Below are positions 38,504 to 63,951 of a stretch of 64,000 nucleotides of DNA, in pieces (the stretch's first letter is position 1; each line of letters starts with the position of its first letter). Below the pieces are notes generated by a model that was not told where the DNA came from, ran no database searches, and saw only the letters and a list, made by a program, of their open reading frames with translations. Source of the DNA: Verrucomicrobiota bacterium. Lineage in GTDB: Bacteria; Verrucomicrobiota; Verrucomicrobiia; Limisphaerales; SIBE01. Location of the stretch: contig JACQWK010000178.1 in NCBI GenBank assembly GCA_016209525.1, positions 2,176-66,175 on the forward strand. Reading direction: 5' to 3'. The position numbers were made by a program, and so were the translations under genes.

Positions 38504-39856
38504 ATGCCTATTCTTGACCAACAACGGCTGAATGTAGCCAAGAAGACGCGCAGCAACATTTTTGGCTGGCGGGGCCAGTTCACGCCGGAGTTTGTCGAGT
38601 ACCTTCTGGACGAGTCAGATACTGGCGCCGGCCTGGTCGTGGACCCGTTTTGCGGGAGTGGAACTGTCTTGCTGGAATCCGCAGGACGGAATCGCCCAGC
38701 GCAAGGTTTCGAGATCAATCCCGCCGCCTACGCCATGTCGCGGTTCTTCACACTCTCCCGACTCTCGCGCTCAGAACGGCTGGGGCTCTTTGCAGGCGTC
38801 GAGCAATTGATTCGCAAAACGGCCGGCGAATTTGCTGATCTGCCGCTGTTCAATTCAGTGGACGACTACCGTGCCAGCTCCTCCAACTTGCTCGACCTTG
38901 CGCGCGAACTATTCTCGAAAACGGAGAACAAGACCCAGACTCTCCTGGCGTTGCTGATTCTGTTCGAGGCTGAAGGCTGCCGCGCTCAGAGCTTGAACCA
39001 AGCAGTCTTCGTCGCCACCAGCCGAATTCGAAAGCACTTGCTCCAACAGCCCCACACGAAGGCGCCGGTGCAGACCTCTTTGTGCGACGCCCGATTGACG
39101 CACCGTTACGTTTGCGCCGAGGCGTCGCTCATCCTTACCAGCCCGCCTTATATCAACGTGTTCAACTACCACCAGAACCACCGCGCCCTGCTGGAACTTC
39201 TCGGCTTCGACCTGCTCCACGTCGCCGCCAGCGAGATCGGCTCCAACCGCAAGAACCGGCAGAACCGATTCCGCACAGTGATTCAATATGCCCTCGACAT
39301 GGAACAATGCCTGCGAAGCTTCGCGCTCAGTCTGGTCAGGGGCGGCAAACTCATCCTGGTGATTGGCCGCGAGTCTAACGTGCGCGGCGTCGCCATTCCC
39401 AACTCACGGCTCGTCGCCGCCGTTGCCGATGATCTCGGCGGCTTCCGGCACGAAAGCACGTTCGAGCGGCGCTTCACGAACCGCTTCGGCGCGTCCATAT
39501 ATGAAGACATCCTGGTGTTCCGGCGGCTCAACTCCGAGCCCGTGCCCGGCGCTGCGGTGCGCCGCGCCAGTCTTTGCCTGGGAGACCTGATCAGCCACAC
39601 GACTGGCGGAGTGCGCGAAGACATCCAACAAGCCTTGGCCGACGCCCCGCCATCCAGCCCTCACCCGTCTTCACGGGCAGCCCGCAACTCTGAGCCATGC
39701 CCGCCACGTCCCATCTCGACAAGTTGGATGCGGCCATCCGTAACCCCAAGTGCGAGCCGGACGACGTGCGATTGCTCGAAGAGGCCCGTGAGCGTTACCA
39801 GTCGTGGAAAACCTCGCTTGGCGCCTTGCGCTCCAAGGGCAAGAAGCGCGTCGTAG
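38504..39856 (+). CDS. DNA methyltransferase (N4-C/N6-A type; motif I then SPPY)
   Basis: Motif I 'LVVDPFCGSGT', motif IV 'LTSPPYINVF'. The last ~55 codons overlap the next gene out of frame, so the true 3' end is uncertain. Confidence 0.8.
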   Translation: MPILDQQRLNVAKKTRSNIFGWRGQFTPEFVEYLLDESDTGAGLVVDPFCGSGTVLLESAGRNRPAQGFEINPAAYAMSRFFTLSRLSRSERLGLFAGVEQLIRKTAGEFADLPLFNSVDDYRASSSNLLDLARELFSKTENKTQTLLALLILFEAEGCRAQSLNQAVFVATSRIRKHLLQQPHTKAPVQTSLCDARLTHRYVCAEASLILTSPPYINVFNYHQNHRALLELLGFDLLHVAASEIGSNRKNRQNRFRTVIQYALDMEQCLRSFALSLVRGGKLILVIGRESNVRGVAIPNSRLVAAVADDLGGFRHESTFERRFTNRFGASIYEDILVFRRLNSEPVPGAAVRRASLCLGDLISHTTGGVREDIQQALADAPPSSPHPSSRAARNSEPCPPRPISTSWMRPSVTPSASRTTCDCSKRPVSVTSRGKPRLAPCAPRARSAS

Positions 39857-40590
39857 AGATGACGCGCCTGCTCAACGAATACAAGGACTTCCTGGAAGTC
39901 GGACTCATCGCCCGGCGTGGCTCCGCGTTCCTCAAGCGCCAGAAGGGCCAACTGAAGCTGGATAACTCCGTGCTGGAGGAATTCCTCGTCGAACTCGTCC
40001 AGCCCGCCATCCTTGACGGCCTGCCGGACTTCCCGCTCAGCGTCGGCCCGACCACGGCCTTCATGTCGCTCTCCTTCGCGCCGCCTGCCCTGCGCGCGCT
40101 GAACGACGCTCCCATCGTTGCGCTCAAGGTGAAGGACCAAGACTTCATCATCGGCAAGGAAATCCACTACCGTTTCTCCCCCGACCCGGACTTCACGCCC
40201 GACAAGACCGCCAGCGGCTCGCTCTCCCTCGCCGTGCTCGCCGCCGAGTGCAAGGTGAACCTCGACAAGACCATGTTCCAGGAAGCCGCCGGCACCGCCG
40301 CCCGGCTCAAGCAAGGCTGCCCTTACTCGCAATACTACATCCTGAACGAATACCTCGACATGGAGCCGGAAGACTGCCGCCTGACGGCCATTGACAACGT
40401 GTTCCTGCTCCGACACGCCAAGCGCCTTCCGTTCGAGAAGCGGTCGGTTTATGAGGAACTCCGCCGTCAGCACGAGCAATCGCCGATTGACGCCGAGGTG
40501 GTCTGGCTGTTCGTGCAGAAGATTCAGGCGTTCATCAGCGCCGCGTGGTACGACCCGGCGAGGGCGCTGCAAAGGGGCACGTTCGTATGA
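39697..40590 (+). CDS. Type II restriction endonuclease candidate (PD-(D/E)xK)
   Basis: 'VKDQDFIIGKE...LAAECKVNLDKTMFQEA' reads as D...ExK. Flanked by methyltransferase genes. Resemblance to the Bpu10I-type family is from memory only. Confidence 0.6.
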   Translation: MPATSHLDKLDAAIRNPKCEPDDVRLLEEARERYQSWKTSLGALRSKGKKRVVEMTRLLNEYKDFLEVGLIARRGSAFLKRQKGQLKLDNSVLEEFLVELVQPAILDGLPDFPLSVGPTTAFMSLSFAPPALRALNDAPIVALKVKDQDFIIGKEIHYRFSPDPDFTPDKTASGSLSLAVLAAECKVNLDKTMFQEAAGTAARLKQGCPYSQYYILNEYLDMEPEDCRLTAIDNVFLLRHAKRLPFEKRSVYEELRRQHEQSPIDAEVVWLFVQKIQAFISAAWYDPARALQRGTFV

Positions 40591-41195: not shown

Positions 41196-41309
41196 ATGTC
41201 AGGATCTCACGAGCGACGACATTGCTGAACCTTTGTGTCAAGGATGCAGTTCCATCCTTGCCAATCCCGTGGTTCGGCGTTCTACAATTCAACTGATGGG
41301 TCTTTAGCA

Positions 41310-43247
41310 ATGGAAAGCAAGCCACAGAATCCCGTGCAGACGGACTTGTTCGCCAGCACACCGTTCGCGTTCGGCCCTGGATTCCTTCGCGATCACGCTG
41401 GTCACATCATGACGGAGCCACGCATCGCTCTCGTGGAGCTCATCGCGAATGCCTACGATGCGGGCGCAACCGAGGTGGAAATTCGTTGGCCGGATCAGCC
41501 TGGCGGTGAATTCGAGATCACGGATAACGGCGCAGGGATGACATTGGAGGAGTTCAACCGCCGCTGGAAGACCCTCCGCTACAATCGTTCGATTGAGCAG
41601 GGAAGCGATGTACAATTTCCCCCGGGTACGCGGCGCGGTCTGCGCGTCGCGTTTGGCCAGAGCGGCAAGGGACGCCACGGCGCGTTCTGCTTCGCGGACA
41701 TTTACCAGGTCGAAACGTGGCGAGATGGCACTACTGCCACGGTGAAAGTGGAGTTGGTTGACGGCGGCACGGAGCCATTCCATTGCTCAATTCTTGAACA
41801 AGGAGAAAAGCCCGGACACGGAACTCGCATCTGGGCCACAGTTACACGCAAGGTGATCTCCGAAGACCAGATCAGCGAGTGGGTTGGTTCAAAGTTTCTG
41901 GTTGATCCTGATTTCGCGATCAGCCTAAACCGACAACGACTGGCATTGCTGGCAGTGCCTGACCTGAAATCTACTGTTCTGGATGTTCCTCCGTACGGCC
42001 CCGTTCGCGTTCATCAGATCGAAGCACCGCAGCAAGACAGAACTACCCGTTTGAGAGGTATCACTTGGTGGGTCAACAAGAGAATGGTTGGCCACCCGTC
42101 TTGGTCAGGACTCGAGGAGCAAGGAGCGATCCTGGACGGGCGCACAGCGGCAGGCAAACGAGTGAGCTTCATTGTCGAAGCTGACTGCCTTAAGCCTGAC
42201 GTGAAACAAGACTGGTCCGGTTTTCATGACTCTAACCGGTCTTTGAAGGTTCAAGATGTCGCGAAAGAGCACGTCATCCGAGCTTTGGATAGTTTGCTGT
42301 CCGCTACGCGGAAAGACAGGAAGAAGGCTGTTTTGGCAGAACATCGAAAAGCCCTTGGTGGCCTTCCGCTCTCGGCTAGGAAGGTCGTCGGGAAGTTCGT
42401 TGATGAGGTTCAGCAGAACTGCCCGAGCATTTCGGACGGTGACTTGTCGAGAACCGTGGCGGTGCTGACGAAGCTGGAGAGTTCAAGAGACGGTTACGAC
42501 CTCCTTGCCAGACTTGCTGCGTGCTCGCCGGACGACTTGGACACTTGGAATCGACTCATGGGTGAATGGACCGCCAGCAACGCCGAGATTGTGTTGAACG
42601 AGCTCGGCAGGCGACTCAAGCTGATAAACGACTTAGAGAAGTTGGTTCATGTCACGACTTCCGACGAGTTGCACGACCTGCAACCGCTGTTCGCCCGCGG
42701 TCTTTGGATGTTTGGCCCTGAGTTAGAATCGGCCGATTTCACGTCCAATCGCCGAATGGCCACTGTCATCCGCACCTTGCTCGGCGGTGCCGAGGCCGAA
42801 CTCTCCACTCGTCGGCCGGATTTTGTCGCGCTACCTGATCGCTCGATTGGCATCTACTCCGCCGACTCTTACGACAACGAAGGAGAGGTCAGCGGCATTC
42901 GGAAGGTTGTCATCGTCGAACTGAAGAAGGGAGGGTTCGACGTTACGACAAAGGAAATTCGGCAGGGAGAGGACTACGCCATTGAGCTTCAAAGGGCCAA
43001 CCTGGTCGTACCCGAAACCAAAATCACCGTTTATGTGCTTGGCGCAACTTTGGCGGATTCGAAGGAGAGAACGGTTGGAGACTCCGTACGAGTAGTCCCT
43101 TTCGACTACTCATCGCTTCTACGTCGTGCTCATGCTCGCACATTTCACCTGCAACAGAAGCTCAGTGAAGCAGGCCCAACCAGTGGGTCGGACAGTGAAG
43201 TGGAGGAAGTCGTTGGTCAACCAGAACAGGAGGAGTTGCTTGCTTGA
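41310..43247 (+). CDS. GHKL (HATPase_c_3 / MORC-like) ATPase fused to a C-terminal RecB/Mrr-like PD-(D/E)xK nuclease
   Basis: N box 'ELIANAYDAGATEV', G1 'ITDNGAGM', G2 'GQSGKGRHG'. C-terminus 'RRPDFVAL...VVIVELKKG...IRQGEDY' (PD, ExK, QxxxY). Confidence 0.75.
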   Translation: MESKPQNPVQTDLFASTPFAFGPGFLRDHAGHIMTEPRIALVELIANAYDAGATEVEIRWPDQPGGEFEITDNGAGMTLEEFNRRWKTLRYNRSIEQGSDVQFPPGTRRGLRVAFGQSGKGRHGAFCFADIYQVETWRDGTTATVKVELVDGGTEPFHCSILEQGEKPGHGTRIWATVTRKVISEDQISEWVGSKFLVDPDFAISLNRQRLALLAVPDLKSTVLDVPPYGPVRVHQIEAPQQDRTTRLRGITWWVNKRMVGHPSWSGLEEQGAILDGRTAAGKRVSFIVEADCLKPDVKQDWSGFHDSNRSLKVQDVAKEHVIRALDSLLSATRKDRKKAVLAEHRKALGGLPLSARKVVGKFVDEVQQNCPSISDGDLSRTVAVLTKLESSRDGYDLLARLAACSPDDLDTWNRLMGEWTASNAEIVLNELGRRLKLINDLEKLVHVTTSDELHDLQPLFARGLWMFGPELESADFTSNRRMATVIRTLLGGAEAELSTRRPDFVALPDRSIGIYSADSYDNEGEVSGIRKVVIVELKKGGFDVTTKEIRQGEDYAIELQRANLVVPETKITVYVLGATLADSKERTVGDSVRVVPFDYSSLLRRAHARTFHLQQKLSEAGPTSGSDSEVEEVVGQPEQEELLA

Positions 43248-43275
43248 GCATTCGTTCGCGCTCGATCTGAATTCT

Positions 43276-43914
43276 ATGGACTGCGATCGCACTGTTTTAC
43301 GAGACCTAGCAGAAATCTATGAGCGCGCGACGCTCATCCCAACCGGGCGACACCTGACGACTGTCAATACCTTCACGGACCAGACTGAGCCGCTCAAGCC
43401 TTCCCTACTGAAGCATCTCGCCCTCTTGATTTCGAAAGAAGTGTGTGATGGCTCAGGAATTGACTTGATTGTTGGTGAAGAAGACAAGGGGGCCCATATC
43501 ACGACGGCGGTTGCATTGCACCTCGACAAGCCCTTTTCGTTAGCAAGATGGTATCCGTACCACGCGACGTTTCGGCATCCCGCTTCGGTGGTTGTGGACG
43601 TGGAGTCGGAGTACTTCTCCGGTAAGTTGCTCCTAAATGGCGTGCCTGAAGGTGCGCGAGTGCTAATTGTTGACGACACGTTGAGCACCGGAGGAACAAT
43701 GATTGCCTTGATCCGCGCTCTTCTCCAGCGCAAGGCGTGCGTAGTCAAAGCAGTTTCGGTAGTCGAAAAAGTGAACGAGTCTGGTCGTGATCGTGTTCAA
43801 AGAGAAACCGGCGTCGAAGTCGTTACGCTGCTCAAACTCGACACATCTGGTGGCCGCATCACAATTGTGACGCCGCCAGAGAGAAAGGGTCAATGCGCCT
43901 CAGGAAGACGATGA
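43276..43914 (+). CDS. Type I phosphoribosyltransferase (PRTase) domain protein
   Basis: PRPP loop 'RVLIVDDTLSTGGTM'; upstream 'VGEEDKGAH'. Lies 29 nt after the GHKL gene. Confidence 0.75.
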   Translation: MDCDRTVLRDLAEIYERATLIPTGRHLTTVNTFTDQTEPLKPSLLKHLALLISKEVCDGSGIDLIVGEEDKGAHITTAVALHLDKPFSLARWYPYHATFRHPASVVVDVESEYFSGKLLLNGVPEGARVLIVDDTLSTGGTMIALIRALLQRKACVVKAVSVVEKVNESGRDRVQRETGVEVVTLLKLDTSGGRITIVTPPERKGQCASGRR

Positions 43915-43936
43915 AGCGGACGAAATGTGAGTTCAT

Positions 43937-45268
43937 ATGAAAACCCTCGTCGATATCACTGCAATCCACAGAGTCGGAACTGTGCTGACATCAGCGCCAA
44001 CGGACATGGTGCGCGCTGACGATGCGGTAGCCATCCTCCACTTCGCTGAGCATCTGCTCTTTTCGGATGAGGTAGCGTTCGTGTCGTTTGATGAGCCACG
44101 GATTTCGGGGGTGACATACGACGTTATAGAAACACTGGAGAAGCACCAGTGCCTACCGAAGGGGGAAGAGATTGCGCAACCGGTGGCACCTCAGGCTCGC
44201 GATTGTCGGCTCGGAAATATCAAAGGACGCATTGTAGCAGATTACGAAGCGTCATTCGAGTTCTACAGACAGTGTTGCAGATCGGCTGCTCTGAAGGCGT
44301 CTGACACGCTGTGTGGCTGGCTCACAAGAGAAGTTATCACCAAAATGGCTGGAATGATGAGCGAATCCATAAGACCCAAGCATTCGACCGTGGACCACGT
44401 GAGTAGTTTACTCGGAATTCAGGATGCGCTCGAGATTCGGCAAGCGCGCGCCCTCGACGATCTCTCCGTGGCGAAAGCGGACGCTGCTGTCAGATACATG
44501 CTCCTGGCTATCGACCAGTTGCGAGGGGCCCTCAAGAAGATGGAACGCGACACCGGACCGTTCAGCAGTTCTGAGGATGAGGCACTGAGAGTGATTTTGC
44601 GCATGCAGTTGAATCACGTACTGGCGGAGGAACTTGGGTTTCGTTACGCGCCAGTTCCCCAGAGAGCAAAATGTGACGAGAAGTTGGAGCAAACGTTTCG
44701 GCAAAGTCTGAATACAATGCTATGGAAACTTGCCAAAGAGAAGCGGTCACAGAATCAAATCTGGAATGGTCTCGTAGAGTCGCTGACGACAAAGGAACAT
44801 CTGCCCCTTCCAAGCCTAGCACTGCACGCGTTAAGGCAAAGGCAGGACTGTGGCCCTATCGGTCTCCTGCGATCAGCGGCAGAGCTGAGGAACTCCAAAG
44901 AAATCCGTGCGGTTCGAGAATGGCTTAACGAATGGGAAGACGCTGAGCACAAGGGGCAAAGACGAGAGCAAGACAAGGCAGCCCAAGAGATCCGCGATTG
45001 CGAAAAGATGCTAAAGGTGAAACTGGGATTGAATCCGCCCCATTCTATTCTGCGCGCATCCTACGACACGCTTGTGTCAATTTTAAAGTGGGAGCTCCCA
45101 GAAGGTAAGGATTTGGAGGAGATTTTCACCTCGGGGGCATCCCCATTGTGGCCAACAGCGCGCCGCGCGAAGGCGTTTCTGACAATGGTGGCAAAAGATC
45201 TTGGAACTGAAAAAGAGCTCGGAGAATGGCTAATGCGAGCTTTGGACAGGACAATTGAAATTGCCTGA
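43937..45268 (+). CDS. Hypothetical 443-aa mostly helical protein, third gene of the GHKL-PRTase cluster
   Basis: Uninterrupted ORF 23 nt after the PRTase gene. No motif recognised. Confidence 0.6.
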   Translation: MKTLVDITAIHRVGTVLTSAPTDMVRADDAVAILHFAEHLLFSDEVAFVSFDEPRISGVTYDVIETLEKHQCLPKGEEIAQPVAPQARDCRLGNIKGRIVADYEASFEFYRQCCRSAALKASDTLCGWLTREVITKMAGMMSESIRPKHSTVDHVSSLLGIQDALEIRQARALDDLSVAKADAAVRYMLLAIDQLRGALKKMERDTGPFSSSEDEALRVILRMQLNHVLAEELGFRYAPVPQRAKCDEKLEQTFRQSLNTMLWKLAKEKRSQNQIWNGLVESLTTKEHLPLPSLALHALRQRQDCGPIGLLRSAAELRNSKEIRAVREWLNEWEDAEHKGQRREQDKAAQEIRDCEKMLKVKLGLNPPHSILRASYDTLVSILKWELPEGKDLEEIFTSGASPLWPTARRAKAFLTMVAKDLGTEKELGEWLMRALDRTIEIA

Positions 45269-55803: not shown

Positions 55804-56049
55804 ATGCCAACGGCAACGAAGACGGATACGGTTTACTTCTCGGTGAAAGGGCAGGTTGTCATTCCTCGCTGGCTCCGCAAGGAGTTTGAGATCGAGGAAG
55901 GCACCCGGGCCTACGTGCAATCCACTCCGCAGGGCATCCTGATCAAGCCGGTCACCCGCACCTACATCAAGAGCCTGCGCGGCTCGCTCAAGGGCCGCGG
56001 CGTGATGAAGGCGCTCATGGAAGACCGCAAACGCGAGCAGGACCTTTGA
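55804..56049 (+). CDS. vapB: AbrB/SpoVT-fold antitoxin (VapB family)
   Basis: 'VKGQVVIPRWLRKEFEIEEGT' motif. Lies 1 nt before the PIN gene. Confidence 0.8.
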   Translation: MPTATKTDTVYFSVKGQVVIPRWLRKEFEIEEGTRAYVQSTPQGILIKPVTRTYIKSLRGSLKGRGVMKALMEDRKREQDL

Positions 56050-56050
56050 C

Positions 56051-56455
56051 ATGGCCACCAAGGTTCTGGATAGCTGGGCGCTGATCGCCTTCTTTGAGGA
56101 CGAACCGGCGGCGGACGACGTCGAGAAGTTGCTCCAGCAGGCCGCCGACGAGAAGCACAAACTCCTGATGAGCGTCGTGAACTGGGGCGAAGTCTATTAC
56201 AACACCATGCGCGCGGTGTCCCAAGAGGCCGCCGAGCAGAAGGCCCAGGAAATCGCCGCGTTGCCCATCGACATCATCGGCGTGAGCGACGACCTGACGC
56301 TGGCCAGACAAGCTGCCATCTTCAAAGCCACGCACAAGATGTCCTACGCTGACTGTTTTGCCGCCGCGCTGGCCAGGCAAAAGAACGCCGAACTCATCAC
56401 CGGCGACCCAGAGTTCAAGGCGGTCGAGAAGGAAATCAAAATTCAGTGGCTGTAG
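56051..56455 (+). CDS. vapC: PIN-domain toxin (VapC family)
   Basis: 'KVLDSWALIAFF', 'NWGEVYY', 'SYADCFAAALA', 'LITGDPEF' acidic-residue pattern. Confidence 0.8.
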   Translation: MATKVLDSWALIAFFEDEPAADDVEKLLQQAADEKHKLLMSVVNWGEVYYNTMRAVSQEAAEQKAQEIAALPIDIIGVSDDLTLARQAAIFKATHKMSYADCFAAALARQKNAELITGDPEFKAVEKEIKIQWL

Positions 56456-56700
56456 CCGGGAGGGAAGGCGCACCACGCAGACGGAGTCGGCCCAGGGCGC
56501 GCAGGATTTCACGAGCATCAACGTCTGCACGCGGGAAGAGAAGGACGACGTGGGGAAAATCGTCTTGCCTCGACCCTCAGCGAAAATGCCGACGCGCTGG
56601 ACGGTTCGTGAAGGAAAACCAAACCCACGCCTCAGCGAATGACGAGGCCGGAATGAAACCGGCGCTTTCATTGGCATTTGCACTGTGTTAGAAAGAAGCC

Positions 56701-57021
56701 GTGAAAACGCTGGACAAGAACCTGCTTGAAACGGCTACACAACGGCTGGTGGCGGAATTTCAGCCGGAGCAGGTCTGGCTTTATGGCTCGCACGCCTGGG
56801 GCCATCCGCACGAGGACAGCGACGTTGACCTTCTCGTCGTCGTGCCGCACAGCGACGAAACACCCATCCGCCGCTCGCAACGGGCGCGTCGTTGTCTGCG
56901 CGGCCTGCGGATGCCCAAGGATGTGTTGGTGGAGACGCGGCAGGAAGTGGATCGTGTCAAAGAAGTCAAAACCTCGCTCGAAAACATCATCTTGACCCGG
57001 GGGCGGAGGCTGTATGGCTGA
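56701..57021 (+). CDS. Minimal nucleotidyltransferase (MNT) antitoxin-type protein
   Basis: 'LYGSHAWGHPHEDSDVDLLVV' (GS...DxD). GTG start. Confidence 0.8.
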   Translation: MKTLDKNLLETATQRLVAEFQPEQVWLYGSHAWGHPHEDSDVDLLVVVPHSDETPIRRSQRARRCLRGLRMPKDVLVETRQEVDRVKEVKTSLENIILTRGRRLYG

Positions 57022-57295
57022 TCCGGCGGCCTCCGAAGCAAAAGCGTGGATGGTCAAAGCGTGGCGCGACCTGGAAACCGCCCGCCGGGCTGCGGCCGGC
57101 CAGCCGCCTTTCTACGACGTGGCCGTTTACCACTGTCAGCAGGCGGCGGAAAAAGCGGTCAAGGCGTTCCTCGTTCACCACGGCAAGCCTTACGAAAAGA
57201 CGCACGACATCGAAGGCCACCATGTGAACGTCCTCGGCATCGTGCCGAAAGACCGCGCCGACGAGTGGCTGGCCCGATACGGAGAAGAGTTATGA
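57014..57295 (+). CDS. HEPN-domain protein (short)
   Basis: 'AVYHCQQAAEKAVKAFL...KTHDI' contains the R/KxxxxH-type HEPN motif. Overlaps the MNT gene by 8 nt. Confidence 0.7.
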   Translation: MADPAASEAKAWMVKAWRDLETARRAAAGQPPFYDVAVYHCQQAAEKAVKAFLVHHGKPYEKTHDIEGHHVNVLGIVPKDRADEWLARYGEEL

Positions 57296-57540
57296 TCAAA
57301 GCGCCCTTGGCAGAAGTGAAAGACACGCTTTCCGATTACGTGACGAAAACGGCGAAAGACGAAGTCCTCATCACCCGGCACGGCAAGCCGGCGGCCATCC
57401 TGATTGGCTTCGCTGACGAAGACGACTGGCTCGACTATCGGCTTGAGCACGACGAGCCTTTCCTCAAGCGGATTGAAAAGTCGCGCCGGCAACCCCGCGG
57501 TAGGGCGTTCGTCCACTTGGAGGAATTGCCAGCGAAATGA
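57292..57540 (+). CDS. Phd/YefM-family antitoxin with no adjacent cognate toxin
   Basis: 'LAEVKDTLSDYVTKTAKDEVLITRHGKPAAILI'. Its ATG overlaps the HEPN stop (ATGA). Confidence 0.8.
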   Translation: MIKAPLAEVKDTLSDYVTKTAKDEVLITRHGKPAAILIGFADEDDWLDYRLEHDEPFLKRIEKSRRQPRGRAFVHLEELPAK

Positions 57541-57556
57541 CCGCGACCAGACAGAG

Positions 57557-58699
57557 TTGAAAACGAGTAGCACAAACGGATGGTCGTTTGCCGGTGTTGC
57601 GGTTAAGCCAGCCCCAGCGCGGTGGAGACAGCCTTGCGCAAACACGGAGTGCTCGCTGCACCAGTTGTCGCCGTACATCGGCAAGATCAAGAGCGCTATT
57701 GCCGGCGAGTTGGTCGAGCGGTTCTCGAAACCAGGCGATTTGGTTGTGGACCCTTTCGCCGGAGCGGGAACGATTCCCTTTGAGGCTGCCTTGCGAGGCC
57801 GGCGAGCCTTGGCCGCTGACATCAGTCCGTACGCGCGGATTCTCTCGAAAGCCAAATTGTCAGCGCCCCGTTCCTTGGGTGCTGCCTTGTGTCTCGCTGA
57901 ACGAGCCTTGGAGGAAGCAGCCCGCCTTCCCAAACCCGATTTGCGTGAGGTTCCGCCGTGGGTTCGACGGTTTTATCATCCCGAAACGCTCCGCGAGGTG
58001 TTGAATCTCGCGTCGGTCTGTCGTCAGCCCGGGAACGAGTTCCTGATGGCCTGTCTGCTCGGCATTCTGCATCACCAGCGCCCCGGGTTCCTATCGTACC
58101 CCAGCAGCCATTTGGTGCCGTACCTCCGCGACCGGAAATATCCGCGGCACAAATTCCCGGAGATGTATGCTTACCGGCATCTGAAACCGCGCCTCCTCGC
58201 CAAGGTCAAGCGCAGCTACAAGCGCTTCGCGCGCCCTCGTGGGTCCGCGGTCGCTGAATTCAAACAGACCGCCGTGCAGAACCTGGAGTTGCCTGCCCGT
58301 TTTGGCGCCCTGATTACGAGCCCGCCGTACATGAACGCTTTGGACTACGGCAGGGACAATCGCCTGCGCTTGTGGTTCATTGACCCGAGCCTCGTGGACG
58401 AGGTTGACAACGACGTGACGCAGCGACGGCAGGCTTTCATCGACGCCATCACCAGCCTGGCGTCGATAGTGGAACGAGGGCTGGGGCGGAACGGCTATTG
58501 TGTTTTCGTGGTCGGCGAAGAGTTCAAGCGCAGCTTTGATGCCCACCCTTCCGACGCCGTTGTGCGCATCATGCGCGAGCAGGCTCCGTCGCTGCGGTTG
58601 AAGACGGTGATGGCCGACGAAATTCCCGACGTGCGCCGGACACGCCGCGAATGCAAAGGCGTGAAGACGGAACACTTCCTTGTTTTCCAGAGGAATTGA
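57557..58699 (+). CDS. DNA methyltransferase (motif I then SPPY), paralogue of 38504-39856
   Basis: 'LVVDPFAGAGT', 'LITSPPYMNALDY'; C-terminus 'EHFLVFQRN' parallels 'EDILVFRR' of the other enzyme. The start is uncertain: the TTG at 57557 is the first in-frame start after the Phd stop. Confidence 0.8.
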   Translation: MKTSSTNGWSFAGVAVKPAPARWRQPCANTECSLHQLSPYIGKIKSAIAGELVERFSKPGDLVVDPFAGAGTIPFEAALRGRRALAADISPYARILSKAKLSAPRSLGAALCLAERALEEAARLPKPDLREVPPWVRRFYHPETLREVLNLASVCRQPGNEFLMACLLGILHHQRPGFLSYPSSHLVPYLRDRKYPRHKFPEMYAYRHLKPRLLAKVKRSYKRFARPRGSAVAEFKQTAVQNLELPARFGALITSPPYMNALDYGRDNRLRLWFIDPSLVDEVDNDVTQRRQAFIDAITSLASIVERGLGRNGYCVFVVGEEFKRSFDAHPSDAVVRIMREQAPSLRLKTVMADEIPDVRRTRRECKGVKTEHFLVFQRN

Positions 58700-58700
58700 G

Positions 58701-61211
58701 ATGGACAAAGCCGACTTCACTCCCGAACGGTACTTGGGACTTTCGCCCAACCAAGACTACATCCTCACTGAGTACATCGGCGAGGGGAAGATCGGGATGG
58801 TGTTCCGTGCCAAAAGCGAGCGGACAGGGCTCTCGCTGGCCTGCAAGGTGATACGCGAAGGCGGTTTGAAGGAGGGCTGGGAGAGAGAGTTGGAGAAGGT
58901 TCGGAAACTTCAAGGGGTGCCGCACGTCGTCGAGTATCGTGACCATGGCTCAAACTTTGACCGCGAGCAGAGGCCGTACTACTGGGTGTTTTTCGACTTC
59001 ATCGATGGGAGGAACCTCCGGACATTGCTTGCCAATCCCGGCTTCACCCTCACGATGTCGTTTGTCGAAAGTGTTCTCCGTGCAGTATTGGGGGTGCTCC
59101 ATGCCTGTGCGATTGAGGGAATCAGCCACGGCGATCTCCACGCTGGGAACATCCTCGTCAAAAGGCCCGACCGTCGGATACTCAACAGCAAGCGGACGGT
59201 TTACGTGTCGGACTTTGGTTATGGCGGCTCTCACAACGACGTGAAGCCCAAAAACGACTTCTTGGAACTCGCCGTCATAATTCAGGGCCTCCTCGCCCAC
59301 CTTCCTCCCAGCGAACTGAATTCTCGCGACAAGAACCTGCGAGCGTTGTTGGTCGAGTTCGCACGGAAACGAATCCGGGATGTCGGGCGCACGCCGGGTG
59401 TGACAGTTGAGAAAATCTTTACCGAGCTTGAGGAGCTTTGCCGAAAGGCGGAGCGGCAGTCGGCGACTGGCGCCGGGGAGGACGACGACCAGAACAAGAA
59501 ACCTACGGACTACCTGTGGGCGGAAGCTCTCGGCACTCGCATTCAAGAGTGGAAAAACCTGTTTGTCCCGAACTTTCTTGCAGCCAACGACCTTCTGGCG
59601 AAGACGACAACCGTGCTCACCGGAGCTCGTGGATGTGGGAAGACGATGTCTTTCCGCAGGCTGACAAAATTGATGGATGCCATCATCGGCGAATCTTCCG
59701 GTGTTTCCGGCGCCGGTACGTTTGTTGGATTCTATCTGAACTGCCGCGATCTGACAGACGCGTTTCCTTGGATTCCCAATGAGTTGAAGGCCCAAGCTGA
59801 ACGCCAGGTCATCCACTTCTTTCACCTCGCTTGGCTGGCCGAGATTCTCAAAACCCTCGCATATGCGGACCAAGACGAAGCTGCGGATTACCGATGGTTG
59901 GAAAACTGGTTTGGTTCGCTCTACGGAGAACATTTTGCAAGAACTTCAGCCGGAGAGAAGGTGCTTGCTCACGTTCGATCATTTGTCGAAGCGGAAAAAG
60001 AGCGGTCTCGGATCACGCCCTTGGGAAAAGAGGACGGAACAGCTTGGCCGCTGGCGCGAACGGATCTACTGGATAGCTTCTTTCGGGAGACGGCTCTGCA
60101 CCTCGCTTGGCTGGCATCGTCGCCGGTGTTCCTGTTCTTGGATGACTACACTATTCCGCTCGTTCCACGGTCGATCCAACTCGCCCTAAACCCGATTATT
60201 TTCCGACGACGTAGCGACCTGTTTTTCAAGGTGTCCACTGAAGCAGCCAATAGTTTCGTCGCAAGCGGACCGCGCAAGAAACCGCTGGAACTGCACCATG
60301 ATTTCGTCCTGCTGGATCTGGCCACCGAAAGCTTGCACCAGAAAGAGGCCGAGAAAGAGGGTTTGCTCGACAGCATCTTTCGGCCACGAATCAAGAGGCA
60401 CACACTGTTCGCGGCATCGGAGTTTGGCTTAGAAGACATGCTTGGCAAGACACCGTACGACAACAACGGACTTGCGTGGCAGATGCGACGAGGTCTTGGT
60501 AGCGAGGAAAAGCAGAGGGTTTGCTACCACGGCAAAAGTGTCTTCGTGGGGTTGTGGACCAGCGACATCCGCACGATGGTTGAGATGTTTAACGACATGC
60601 TGCGTGAAGCCAATGGACGCATCACCGCCGAAAACCCGATCATTCCCAAGGAAACTCAGGACCGATGCATCCGTAACCAAGGAGGGGAAATGATGACTTT
60701 CACGCAGTCCATTCGCGACTACGAGTTGTGCAAACAGACCAAACGCGAGAAGGGGCGAGCGGAGAAGTTTGGGAACCACCTGAAGTCCATCGTGGAAGCC
60801 TTCATCGGCGTCGCTCGGTACGAACTTCTCGAAGGCCCGCCGCTGAGCAACCAAGGCCGCGAGAATCCGCGCCAAGCCTTTCGGATCGAGGTGGTGGACA
60901 GTTTTGAACCGGATCGGAGAGTCAGGGGCTACTTGGAAGGGCTCGTACGCTACCACATTTTCCTGCAGGATTGGCGAGGAAAGAGCCAACGTGGAATGCT
61001 CACGCCACGGCTGTACCTCAACCGGATGTTTCTTCCGTACGGCGGCTTGACGCTCTCAAGCCACGATCACATTCAGTTGACGAACTGCGAACTGATGCAA
61101 CTCCTGGAGTGGCCCACACGCTTTCTTGATTACTGGAAGCGCAAACGCAGCCAGCAAGCTGGGCGCAAGAAACACCGGGATGGGGCAGGTCAGCAACGCC
61201 TGACGCTCTAG
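58701..61211 (+). CDS. Protein-kinase-like domain fused to a P-loop NTPase (836 aa)
   Basis: G-loop 'GEGKIGMVFRA', Lys 'ACKVI', catalytic loop 'HGDLHAGNILV', 'VSDFGYG'. Then Walker A 'LTGARGCGKTMS' and Walker B 'VFLFLDDYT'. 'AGGA' lies 6 nt before the ATG, which sits 1 nt after the MTase stop. Confidence 0.8.
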   Translation: MDKADFTPERYLGLSPNQDYILTEYIGEGKIGMVFRAKSERTGLSLACKVIREGGLKEGWERELEKVRKLQGVPHVVEYRDHGSNFDREQRPYYWVFFDFIDGRNLRTLLANPGFTLTMSFVESVLRAVLGVLHACAIEGISHGDLHAGNILVKRPDRRILNSKRTVYVSDFGYGGSHNDVKPKNDFLELAVIIQGLLAHLPPSELNSRDKNLRALLVEFARKRIRDVGRTPGVTVEKIFTELEELCRKAERQSATGAGEDDDQNKKPTDYLWAEALGTRIQEWKNLFVPNFLAANDLLAKTTTVLTGARGCGKTMSFRRLTKLMDAIIGESSGVSGAGTFVGFYLNCRDLTDAFPWIPNELKAQAERQVIHFFHLAWLAEILKTLAYADQDEAADYRWLENWFGSLYGEHFARTSAGEKVLAHVRSFVEAEKERSRITPLGKEDGTAWPLARTDLLDSFFRETALHLAWLASSPVFLFLDDYTIPLVPRSIQLALNPIIFRRRSDLFFKVSTEAANSFVASGPRKKPLELHHDFVLLDLATESLHQKEAEKEGLLDSIFRPRIKRHTLFAASEFGLEDMLGKTPYDNNGLAWQMRRGLGSEEKQRVCYHGKSVFVGLWTSDIRTMVEMFNDMLREANGRITAENPIIPKETQDRCIRNQGGEMMTFTQSIRDYELCKQTKREKGRAEKFGNHLKSIVEAFIGVARYELLEGPPLSNQGRENPRQAFRIEVVDSFEPDRRVRGYLEGLVRYHIFLQDWRGKSQRGMLTPRLYLNRMFLPYGGLTLSSHDHIQLTNCELMQLLEWPTRFLDYWKRKRSQQAGRKKHRDGAGQQRLTL

Positions 61212-61212
61212 C

Positions 61213-62301
61213 ATGAACACTCCCTCTCAACCATTTCCTCCCCTCTCGCCGGCTGAGAAGTCTATCGCGCAGCGGCGGCGTGCTTACATCGGTGCGTACG
61301 GTTTTGAAGACCGCTCCCTCGGATGGTGTTCGGCTATGGCTAAGAGCCACGAAGTCATTTCTTCGGCGTTCGTGTTCCGTTACGTGCATCCCAAAGGCCC
61401 GAATCGAATCGAAGAATTAAGGGCAGCCCTGCATCGCATTGGGGCCAGCAAGATTAAAAACATCAAGTACGACATGCTCTGTCCGCAGCCTTTGGAGGAT
61501 GCCCTGCCGACGCAGTTGTCCCTCGACGACTTCGACGAAGTGGTTGTGGACTTATCGGCGATGACGAAACTGCTCATTCTGCTTGTTCTGTGTCGACTTG
61601 AAGACTATCGCGGAAAAGTCCGAATCGTTTACTCGGAAGCGGAGGAGTACTGTCCCAGCAAAGCCGATTACGATCCGGTCAAGGGACAGATGGCAGCGAC
61701 TGCCCGGTTCCCGAGCCGTGGGGCTGAACAAATCGTCCGCCTCCGTTGCCTGAGTAGTATTCGGATGCAAGGCCAACCGGTGACGCTTGTGGCGTTCGCT
61801 TCGTTCAACGAGAAGCTGGTGGCGCACATACTGGGGTTCATCAGCCCTCATCGCCTGATCCTGATCAACGGACGGCCGCCTCGGCAGGAGTATGCGTGGC
61901 GCGAACGTGCCACCCACGACATCCACAGACGTTTTTGCCAAGAGTACGATACGGATAACCCGCTAAACGACAAAGGCCTGCTGGCGCGGGCAACCTCCAC
62001 GCTAAATTACCGTGAGACGGTGGCAGAGTTGGAAACGATCTACCGGGAGCATGGCTTGTTCGAGCGGATCATTTGCGCAGCAACCGGGAGCAAGATGCAG
62101 ACTGTCGGCTTGTTCTTCTCTAAGATCGTGCACCCCGACCTGCAGATCGAGTATCCGACGCCCGACAGCTACTACTTCAAGGATATGACCAGCGGTGTGA
62201 AGCGGGTCCATGAGGTCGTGATTGATAGCTTCGCGGGCTTCTTGGATGGACTGCGCAGTAACTCTGCTGCCGTCGCCGATCCGGTCGGTGCTGACTCCTG
62301 A
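61213..62301 (+). CDS. Hypothetical protein with two Rossmann-like repeats (CARF/SAVED-like?)
   Basis: The ATG lies 1 nt after the kinase gene stop. Duplicated loop motifs 'VVVDLSAMTKLLILL' and 'ICAATGSKMQTVGLFF' resemble the CARF 'D-x-T-G-G-T-K-x-M' loop. This is an unverified impression. Confidence 0.55.
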   Translation: MNTPSQPFPPLSPAEKSIAQRRRAYIGAYGFEDRSLGWCSAMAKSHEVISSAFVFRYVHPKGPNRIEELRAALHRIGASKIKNIKYDMLCPQPLEDALPTQLSLDDFDEVVVDLSAMTKLLILLVLCRLEDYRGKVRIVYSEAEEYCPSKADYDPVKGQMAATARFPSRGAEQIVRLRCLSSIRMQGQPVTLVAFASFNEKLVAHILGFISPHRLILINGRPPRQEYAWRERATHDIHRRFCQEYDTDNPLNDKGLLARATSTLNYRETVAELETIYREHGLFERIICAATGSKMQTVGLFFSKIVHPDLQIEYPTPDSYYFKDMTSGVKRVHEVVIDSFAGFLDGLRSNSAAVADPVGADS

Positions 62302-62361
62302 CGGAGTGTTCCGCCCTGGCAGTCACCCCCCTGCCAACGCCAGCCATCATGTTCCGCCAAG

Positions 62362-62720
62362 CTATTGATGTCGCAACGCCTCGATCGGATCGAGCCGCGC
62401 GGCTTTGCGGGCCGGGACGTAGCCGAGGACAACACCCACGGCGACGGAAAACGCCAACCGATGAGCATGATCGGCGCGTTGAAGACGAAGGGCACCTGCA
62501 ACAGTCCGGCCAGCGAGGCGGAACCAACCAAGGCCAGGACGATGCCAATCAGGCCGCCGAAGGAGGAGAGCACGACGGCCTCGCCCCGTGAGATAAGTGG
62601 GCCAGGAACGGTCGCGCCTCGGCAAAGGGTATCTCACGAGGCGAGACCAGAAACTGGAGGAGCACCTCGCGCTCGAGCGCGCCGATGGCCAGGCGGGTGC
62701 CGATCTCGCGCGGTGTTGTT
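62362..62720 (-). pseudogene. 3' remnant of a MacB/FtsX permease gene, multiply frameshifted, carrying a palindromic insertion
   Basis: Pieces 'REIGTRLAIGALEREVLLQFLV', 'VVLSSFGGLIGIVLALVGSASLAGL' and 'FSVAVGVVLGYVPARKAARLDPIEALRHQ' lie in three different frames. Confidence 0.75.
62577..62648. repeat. Palindromic insertion element, copy 1 (62 nt net)
   Basis: Arms 'ctcgccccgtgagat' and 'atctcacgaggcgag' (one mismatch) around about 33 nt. Confidence 0.8.
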
Positions 62721-63207: not shown

Positions 63208-63477
63208 TCACTTTCTGCGGCGGTGGGCAAAGGCGGCTTCCGTGGCGGTGAGTTGCGCCTGCTCCTTGATTTCCGCCTCGCTGAGACCCTTCCAACCGAG
63301 ACGACGGGGCTTGGGCGGCTGCCATGCGCCACTCCCGCCGGGCTGGGTAGCATAAACGCTCAGAACGTATTCGAGTCCTCGCCGGGCCAGCTCGGCCAGG
63401 GAAATCTCGCGGCTCTTGCAGACCTTGCGAGCACGTTCGTAAACATCGTCGGGCAGTTGGATTTGTGTGCGCGTCAT
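63208..63477 (-). CDS. vapB: Ribbon-helix-helix antitoxin (VapB/CopG-like)
   Basis: 'MTRTQIQLPDDVYERARKVCKSREISLAELARRGLEYVL'. Ends 6 nt before the PIN gene start. Confidence 0.75.
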   Translation of the reverse strand: MTRTQIQLPDDVYERARKVCKSREISLAELARRGLEYVLSVYATQPGGSGAWQPPKPRRLGWKGLSEAEIKEQAQLTATEAAFAHRRRK

Positions 63478-63639: not shown

Positions 63640-63951
63640 CTACTCATGCCGCAGCACTTCGATGGGATCGAGCCGCGCGGCTTTGCGCGCCGGGACGTAG
63701 CCGAAGTCGACACCCACGGCGGCGGAAAAGGTAAAACCGATGAGCACGATCGGGGCGTTGAAAACGAATGGCACCGGCAATAGTCCGGCCAGCGATGCCG
63801 AAGTAACCAGGGCCAGCACAATGCCAATCAGCCCGCCGAAGGAGGAGAGCACGACGGCCTCGCCCCGTGAGATCGTTGGGCCAGCAACGGTCGCGCCTCG
63901 GCAAACGGATATCTCACGGGGCGAGACCAGAAACTGGAGGCACCCCCGCAA
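63640..63951 (-). pseudogene. Second 3' remnant of a MacB/FtsX permease gene with the same palindromic insertion, here in frame
   Basis: 'LQFLV[SPREISVCRGATVAGPTISRG]EAVVLSSFGGLIGIVLALV...YVPARKAARLDPIEVLRHE'. Similarity to permeases stops upstream of 'LQFLV'. Confidence 0.7.
63856..63928. repeat. Palindromic insertion element, copy 2 (63 nt net)
   Basis: Perfect 15-bp arms 'ctcgccccgtgagat' and 'atctcacggggcgag'. Confidence 0.85.

Follow-up and report, generated by a model that had tools for sequence, protein, structure and literature searches.

The eukaryotic-like kinases PD-T4-6 and Stk2 act alone and sense phage proteins. In other described systems a kinase is found together with a methylase: MADS has eight genes (mad1–8), including a specificity subunit, with MAD6, MAD7 and MAD8 as the mandatory set (bioRxiv 10.1101/2023.03.30.534895), and PglW of BREX-2 comprises a kinase, DNA-binding modules and an ORC/Cdc6-like nucleoside triphosphatase (NTPase) and has a methylase partner (bioRxiv 10.1101/2025.10.09.681413). 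In the present study, a cassette of three genes, encoding a methyltransferase (g1), a kinase–ATPase (g2) and a tandem CARF-type protein (g3), was analysed in a 64,000-nucleotide stretch (the window) of contig JACQWK010000178.1 from a Verrucomicrobiota bacterium (assembly GCA_016209525.1). From its sequence and its conservation we infer, with a probability of about one half, that the cassette functions as a methylation-gated, kinase-output conflict system with a CARF sensor, most likely directed against phages.

The three genes are intact open reading frames on the + strand, namely g1 at 57557–58699 (380 amino acids, TTG start), g2 at 58701–61211 (836 amino acids) and g3 at 61213–62301 (362 amino acids), and a single base separates g1 from g2 and g2 from g3. 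At the g1/g2 junction (...AGGAATTGAgATGGAC) the TGA stop occupies 58697–58699 and the ATG of g2 begins at 58701, with AGAGGAA about 7 nt 5′ of it; at the g2/g3 junction (...CTCTAGcATGAAC) the TAG stop at 61209–61211 is followed by an ATG at 61213. The original prediction, made from the letters of the window, had described three tightly packed same-strand genes; both junctions and the AGAGGAA before the ATG of g2 agree with this description, and every motif that it quoted was found (VVDPFAGAGT, TSPPY, GEGKIGMVFRA, ACKVI, HGDLHAGN, DFG, GARGCGKT, FLFLDD, DLSAMTK and ATGSKM). Scanning the operon for promoters and terminators revealed no signal exceeding the shuffled expectation.

The product of g2 had been read as a complete kinase core joined to a P-loop NTPase, and both parts were recognized by profiles. 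The kinase domain (approximately residues 1–260; 58701–59480) matches Pkinase in Pfam (E 4e-14, 53 bits against a cut-off of 31.7) and contains Lys49 (58845–58847), the catalytic loop HGDLHAGN (59127–59150) and DFG (59211–59219). In the AlphaFold2 model of g2 (pLDDT 84) this domain aligns to PknA, PknB and PknI over about 260 columns with a Foldseek probability of 1.0, and a Foldseek search with full-length g2 returned kinases only. A total of 303 homologues of g2 were found, and residues G29, G32, K49, E63, H143, G144, D145, N150, D171, F172 and G173 are invariant in the 42 that were aligned. The N-terminus of g2, with its Gly-rich loop, VAIK lysine, αC glutamate, catalytic Asp/Asn, DFG and kinase fold, is therefore that of a eukaryotic-like protein kinase. 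Its nearest defence profiles in PADLOC are mad6 (E 9e-23) and PD-T4-6 (E 3.5e-16), the PD-T4-6 profiles matching with E values from 1e-16 to 1e-6. A disordered linker (residues 261–278) leads to an ORC-CDC6-like module (approximately residues 286–795; 59556–61085) with Walker A GARGCGKT at 59622–59645 and Walker B LFLDD at about 60135–60146. PF24389 (ORC-CDC6-like) matches with E 2.6e-22 and 79.8 bits, the cut-off being 27, and the match runs over the full length of the family: residues 286–571 and about 600–795 of g2 correspond to profile positions 18–305 and 404–571 of 571, so that the C-terminal region of about 400 amino acids left unplaced by the original prediction is the remainder of this module. 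Walker A (G308–T315, GxxGxGKT) and the Walker B residues D481/D482 are intact and invariant in the same 42 homologues, which places the module among the ORC-CDC6-like AAA+ proteins. The catalytic residues of both the kinase and the ATPase of g2 are thus intact.

The third gene encodes a member of the CARF6 group within the CARF superfamily. The PADLOC profile PDLC01917 (CARF6--CARF_CARF_CARF) matches residues 24–339 of g3 over profile positions 17–304 of 308 with E 1e-13, and the two halves match the CARF6 profile separately (N-terminal half E 6e-7, C-terminal half E 1e-5); by these curated sequence profiles, the CARF guess made from the sequence holds, and the profiles matched are of the sensor type and not those of a housekeeping family. 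The AlphaFold2 model (pLDDT 90, pTM 0.91) has two Rossmann-like domains with alternating strands and helices. Domain 1 (61270–61707; alternation over residues 23–142) contains DLSAMTK (61549–61569), in which D113 and K119 are invariant, and domain 2 (61765–62277; residues 190–337) contains ATGSKMQ (62080–62100), in which K294, M295 and Q296 are invariant. Both motifs are placed after the fourth strand of their respective domains, and in CARF domains the D-x-S/T-x-x-x-K/R motif follows the fourth strand. The two internal repeats that had been proposed stand as two domains in the model, but not as a sequence repeat (hhalign probability 0.3%). Structure searches were less discriminating: Foldseek gave a probability of 1.0 to Csm6 (9w3w, 8jbc), Csa3 (2wte, 6w11) and Cam1 (8t66), but the TM-scores were low (0.2–0.57), and tandem universal-stress-protein and generic methyltransferase/Rossmann folds scored similarly. 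Against viral structures, only generic Rossmann and methyltransferase matches were obtained. With the g3 profile, nothing significant was retrieved from the PDB sequences (best E 0.83), and neither Pfam nor NCBIfam has a match to g3 itself. Among 145 representatives of the g3 family, the Pfam families found were HFX_2341_N (14), Csa3_N (11) and CARF_Card1 (4), all of them weak (E 7.5e-6 or weaker), and no rival family besides the CARF families recurred. The alternative suggestion of a SAVED domain failed, as no SAVED model in PADLOC matches g3; the sole SAVED-named match in the family (SAVED5--SAVED_TIR) falls on the TIR part of a fusion protein (P0067). The '2xCARF' proteins of the CoCoNuT paper were also considered as the g3 family and rejected, as they are Can1/Can2-like nuclease fusions.

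The first gene, as proposed, encodes a methyltransferase, of the N6-adenine or N4-cytosine amino type, with motif I about 190 residues upstream of SPPY. PF01555 matches with 37.1 bits (cut-off 26.7), MethyltransfD12 with 25.9 bits (cut-off 22) and the PADLOC type II methylase profile MTase_II PDLC03325 with E 3e-22. Motif I, VVDPFAGAGT (57743–57772), which would bind S-adenosylmethionine, has D65, P66, G69 and G71 invariant in 16 triad methylases, and the catalytic motif IV, SPPY (58319–58330), has S255, P256, P257 and Y258 invariant. The best-conserved block of g1 lies between them, at residues 161–200 (58037–58156; FLxxCLLGILHHQRPGFLSYPSSHxVPY), with a per-column conservation of 0.90 and 0.78 against a mean of 0.59 across both of the clades described below, and it occupies the site where the variable target-recognition domain of an α-class methylase would be expected. 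Alignment with homologues, most of which have 375–395 residues and many exactly 380, supports the TTG start at 57557. The protein in the source record (P0391) has 344 residues, 36 fewer; a start at about 57665, as this length implies, would remove W23, E31, H35 and Q36, which are conserved in the alignment of g1 homologues.

Compared with the described systems, the cassette shares parts with several and coincides with none. Like MADS, it joins a methylase to a kinase (essential in MADS), g1 matches mad2 weakly in PADLOC, and mad6 is the best defence-profile match of the g2 kinase. However, only the kinase domain of MAD6 is common, the rest of MAD6 being unrelated to g2 (NCBIfam MAD6, 50.6 bits against a cut-off of 460); neither mad7 nor mad8 has a match among the window genes in PADLOC or NCBIfam, the specificity subunit is absent from the cassette and MADS lacks a CARF component. 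Like BREX type 2/Pgl, it pairs a methylase with a multidomain protein carrying an active Ser/Thr-type kinase and an ORC/Cdc6-STAND-like NTPase, and self-discrimination by methylation is presumed in both. However, no match to PglZ, BrxC, PglX or PglW was found in g1, g2 or g3 with PADLOC and Pfam, the cassette lacks PglZ, PglY/BrxC, BrxD and BrxHI, and it is flanked by unrelated genes in every locus. The g2 protein is half the size of PglW and lacks its NERD nuclease, pseudokinase and triple winged helix–turn–helix, whereas its Walker motifs are intact and the PglW ATPase is inactive; the g1 family differs from PglX, and the CARF protein has no BREX counterpart. The triad has no nuclease as an obvious primary effector, whereas PglW carries the NERD endonuclease domain.

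The cassette resembles type II restriction–modification systems in that the methylase comes first in a tight operon, is kept when its partner decays and can be replaced, but g1 has no variable target-recognition region, and profile searches of Pfam, PADLOC, NCBIfam and the PDB revealed in g2 and g3 no nuclease family that could supply a cognate endonuclease. Similarly to the CARF effectors of type III CRISPR systems, g3 matches a CARF6 profile over its full length, has the motif D-x-S-x-x-T-K after β4 twice and occurs fused to TIR and other outputs. The triad differs from them in lacking a linked Cas10, CD-NTase or CRISPR array, in having a kinase–ATPase and not a nuclease as the output partner, in its obligate linkage to a methylase, and in the two CARF domains of each g3 chain, which show no detectable sequence repeat. 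PD-T4-6 and Stk2 share with g2 a related eukaryotic-like kinase domain and a presumed output by phosphorylation leading to abortive infection, whereas the g2 kinase is fused to an ORC-like ATPase and accompanied by a methylase and a CARF protein. In agreement with the original prediction, which knew of no named system with this architecture, searches of PADLOC 2.0.0, NCBIfam 20.0 and Pfam place the triad in none: no system model exists for it in PADLOC 2.0.0 and no family in NCBIfam (June 2026), and no description was found in full-text literature searches, the 2020 CARF census (PMC7498327), from which the PADLOC names of the CARF6 profiles probably derive, lying outside their coverage. The parts are already catalogued (CARF6 profiles, PF24389); the three-gene system itself is, by these searches, unnamed.

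The order g1–g2–g3 and the tight packing were found in 45 of the 45 distinct complete loci compared, from Verrucomicrobiota, Bacteroidota, Acidobacteriota, Nitrospirota, Alphaproteobacteria and Methanoperedens, and the block proposed from the window therefore recurs elsewhere. Hundreds of relatives exist for both g2 and g3 in very distant lineages, and an identity of about 50% is kept across Verrucomicrobiota, Bacteroidota, Acidobacteriota, Nitrospirota, Gemmatimonadota, anammox bacteria and the archaeon Methanoperedens. The identities of g2 and g3 co-vary over the 45 triads (Spearman 0.87). The loci split into two deep clades. Clade A comprises only 18 loci among 185,579 species genomes, with hosts including Chthoniobacter, Ca. 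Kryptonia (where the cassette lies between the trp and nuo operons), Methanoperedens, Ca. Magnetominusculus and, in culture, Flagellimonas taeanensis JCM 17757. Fifteen independent loci of this clade had enough flank, and in all 15 the gene order is unchanged and neighbouring genes overlap or nearly abut. In an exhaustive profile search the g3 family numbered 814 clusters at 50% identity, and scanning metagenomes with distant members yielded 321 loci, 80 of which were fetched and define clade B; its g2 and g3 are about 27% and 30% identical to the window genes, and the triad is kept in all loci with enough flank. Three further g1 homologues, selected solely for their long contigs, all lie in triads. 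Searches of IMG/VR viral contigs and GenBank phages yielded no relatives. A second cultured strain with the triad is Bradyrhizobium quebecense 66S1MB, in which it is carried by plasmid pBq66S1MBc. The cassette is thus a self-contained, conserved and horizontally mobile unit.

Natural variants show how the three parts relate to each other. The kinase and ATPase of g2 align at about positions 100–685 of the 1187-position PADLOC profile PDLC01925 (CARF6--CARF_STK_AAA), and g3 proteins of clades B and C align at its positions 884–1187; because kinase, ATPase and CARF parts align within one profile, PDLC01925 represents a single-chain version of g2 and g3. Since the g2 and g3 of the window match these catalogued CARF6 profiles (CARF6--CARF_STK_AAA and CARF6--CARF_CARF_CARF), the pairing of a kinase–ATPase with a CARF protein is not wholly new. 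The converse arrangement occurs on the Bradyrhizobium quebecense plasmid (L109; NZ_CP088025.1, 69538–74553), where kinase and ATPase are split and four consecutive genes encode a methylase (45% identity to the window gene), a separate kinase of 246 amino acids (39%), an ORC-like ATPase of 652 amino acids (32%) and g3 (35%); PGAP labels them 'DNA methyltransferase' and three hypothetical proteins. This locus is flanked upstream, at a distance of 1.1 kb, by a gene for an Mrr-type endonuclease and directly downstream by thyX. The fused and split versions and the co-varying identities indicate that g2 and g3 are functionally coupled.

In other family members, g3 is fused to a ThsB-like TIR domain (E 2e-56; protein P0067), a cold-shock domain, HisKA plus HATPase, or a calcineurin-like phosphoesterase (Metallophos), although the histidine-kinase fusion could be a gene-calling artefact. 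The CARF profile and fold matches together with these fusions to effector domains identify g3 as behaving as a sensor with exchangeable outputs. C-terminal additions are present in the g3-family proteins P0067, P0247, P0120, P0241, P0280 and P0243, the last with an extension of 384 amino acids.

The methylase is exchangeable in its turn. In one locus (L043; 4506–9184) g1 is absent and a canonical β-class PF01555 methylase (E 4e-55; PADLOC type II E 7e-68) is encoded immediately after g3 in the same orientation, a single instance of non-orthologous displacement of g1. A DNA-methylase gene is therefore an obligate partner, present in every complete locus, of which the family is interchangeable. 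The window cassette is itself a hybrid: its g1 is of the clade B type (mean identity 60%, up to 84%, versus 41% to clade A), whereas its g2 and g3 belong to clade A (50–53% identity versus 28–30% to clade B), so that methylase modules have been swapped between the clades. Decay was also observed. In Chthoniobacter (L001/L008; 4459–5496) an insertion sequence with a DDE transposase lies between g1 and g2, and a SLATT_4 gene adjoins g3; in another locus (L018; 7151–7903) only the last approximately 250 residues of g2 remain beside an intact g1 and g3, as would be expected if g2 is a harmful partner.

In the mechanism that we propose, g1 would methylate host DNA (N6-adenine or N4-cytosine) at one fixed target and so mark self. 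The ORC/Cdc6-like half of g2 would engage DNA, and unmethylated incoming DNA would lead to its ATP-dependent activation, upon which the N-terminal kinase would phosphorylate host or phage proteins, so that phage growth is blocked or the cell is arrested; phosphorylation would thus substitute for the absent nuclease. The g3 protein would bind a nucleotide-type ligand and license or tune g2, and in some lineages it may instead drive its own fused output (TIR, histidine kinase or phosphoesterase). A more specific form of this proposal, which we put forward tentatively and consider doubtful, is an immunity free of both nuclease and cyclase, in which the ORC/Cdc6-like ATPase reads DNA methylation and answers via its attached kinase, with the tandem CARF protein as a partner sensor for a ligand that is either made by or dependent on the kinase–ATPase or is an infection-derived nucleotide or RNA end.

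Several observations weigh against methylation-gated defence by phosphorylation. No nuclease, cyclase or known signal generator is found in or next to the cassette, so that the CARF ligand lacks an explained source. The catalytic loop of g2, HGDLHxGN, is without the Lys of HRDLKxxN and is nearer to that of the APH, Bud32 and ABC1 kinases, which would allow a small-molecule substrate. For the ORC-like module, binding to DNA is presumed on the strength of its family name, and the C-terminal profile of g2 had no significant match among PDB sequences (best E 0.064). Per-column conservation revealed no hypervariable target-recognition segment in g1, unlike the methylases of restriction–modification and BREX systems, and the substrate of g1 could accordingly be invariant or something other than DNA. 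Dissimilar methylases (g1 of clade A, g1 of clade B and the β-class enzyme) accompany similar g2/g3 pairs, which is awkward if g2 must read one sequence motif. Finally, the neighbourhoods often consist of housekeeping genes rather than defence islands: the nine that are annotated are mixed, and mapping to defence islands is inconsistent across loci, toxin–antitoxin and restriction genes being near in the window, the Methanoperedens locus and the Bradyrhizobium plasmid.

These observations bear differently on the alternatives. Signal-driven abortive infection, which we regard as unlikely, would have g3 sense an infection-derived nucleotide or RNA end (compare the CARF proteins that sense cyclic oligoadenylate, and RtcR) and activate the g2 kinase, while the methylase would serve a role other than self-marking, such as anti-restriction, regulation or neutralization of a toxic partner. 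The membership of g3 in the CARF family, its fusions to TIR and Metallophos outputs, the hint at an RNA ligand given by the cold-shock-domain fusion and the absence of a variable target-recognition domain from g1 are all consistent with such a scheme. However, the methylase is retained in every complete locus and, when once replaced, gave way to an unrelated canonical DNA methylase rather than being lost, and none of the neighbourhoods with annotated genes contains a cyclase, Cas10, CD-NTase or other known generator of a CARF signal.

A second alternative, to which we give less weight and which we consider unlikely, is that the cassette is a selfish addiction or epigenetic regulatory module and not an immune system, with the methylase guarding against, or cooperating with, a toxic kinase–ATPase the loss of which is harmful. 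Decay that keeps the methylase while g2 is disrupted, in the truncated locus as well as by the insertion in Chthoniobacter, would fit this explanation, as would the patchy, horizontal distribution and the frequent housekeeping neighbours. The kinase, however, most resembles defence kinases, some g3 variants carry the ThsB-like TIR fusion, and toxin–antitoxin and restriction genes are close by in the three loci named above. Addiction and defence are, moreover, compatible, type II restriction–modification systems being both.

It is improbable that g1 is not a DNA methylase but N-methylates an invariant non-DNA target (protein glutamine or lysine, RNA or the CARF ligand), in which case the triad would form a phospho-methyl signalling circuit. 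Protein glutamine methylases, too, carry NPPY-type motifs, PrmC and PrmA are examples of N-methylation of protein glutamine or lysine, motif I of g1 has weak similarity to Trm14, PrmA and Tgs1, and the segment between motif I and SPPY, where specificity would be expected to vary, is the best-conserved part of g1. On the other hand, PF01555 scores over its cut-off, the PADLOC type II methylase profiles match at E 3e-22 and a canonical type II DNA methylase stands in for g1 in one locus; this displacement supports DNA as the substrate that we infer. Finally, a reduced member of MADS or of BREX type 2/Pgl is highly improbable, as the mad6 and weak mad2 matches and the kinase plus ORC/Cdc6-like layout shared with PglW are set against a MAD6 score far below its cut-off and the lack of homologues of the obligatory MAD7 and MAD8 and of PglZ, BrxC/PglY and PglX.

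The context of the cassette in the window lies outside the system. The toxin–antitoxin neighbours previously noted upstream were borne out by Pfam matches, with an AbrB/MazE–PIN pair, a nucleotidyltransferase–HEPN pair and an orphan Phd antitoxin on the + strand at 55804–57540, the Phd gene occupying 57292–57540. The triad had also seemed lower in G+C content than the core genes; the difference is modest (0.572 against a window value of 0.598, which places the triad at the 7.6th percentile of 4.7-kb windows) and arises from g2 (0.558) and g3 (0.567), not from g1 (0.605). Fragments of FtsX lie downstream. Two direct copies of a segment of about 300 bp (88% identical; approximately 62361–62660 and 63640–63940) each encode the C-terminal end of an FtsX/MacB-type permease, and the intervening 1 kb or so contains a small ribbon–helix–helix-type gene (63208–63477) and a 93-amino-acid open reading frame on the minus strand; the arrangement looks like an insertion or duplication scar. 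A separate restriction–modification pair lies at 38504–40590, where a 450-residue SPPY methylase is followed by a Bpu10I-family endonuclease (PF09549, E 1e-72). The pairing of this methylase with a restriction enzyme had been correctly recognized, but its description as clearly paralogous to g1 was overstated, as the alignment is limited to the neighbourhoods of motif I and SPPY (38% identity over 61 amino acids and 32% over 38; E 2e-7). Another same-strand run at 41235–45268, with the lowest G+C content of the window (0.53–0.56), encodes a 670-residue GHKL-type ATPase (HATPase_c_3), an overlapping 262-residue phosphoribosyltransferase and a 443-residue protein with no Pfam match, and may be a further accessory or defence module.

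In conclusion, a defence function of the cassette would make it a compact three-gene design in which self-marking by methylation is read by phosphorylation and not by DNA cleavage, with a built-in CARF-type sensor and without a known signal synthase. In that case it would also offer a minimal and tractable model of the kinase arm in BREX-2/Pgl and MADS, which is poorly understood, and it would raise the concrete question of what CARF domains respond to beyond CRISPR and CBASS. The span over bacteria and archaea, the fused, split and effector-swapped variants and the occurrence in two cultured strains make the cassette practical to study. Should immunity free of both nuclease and cyclase prove true, CARF signalling would for the first time be seen to run independently of Cas10 and CD-NTase, and epigenetic self-marking to be coupled directly to CARF and kinase signalling.

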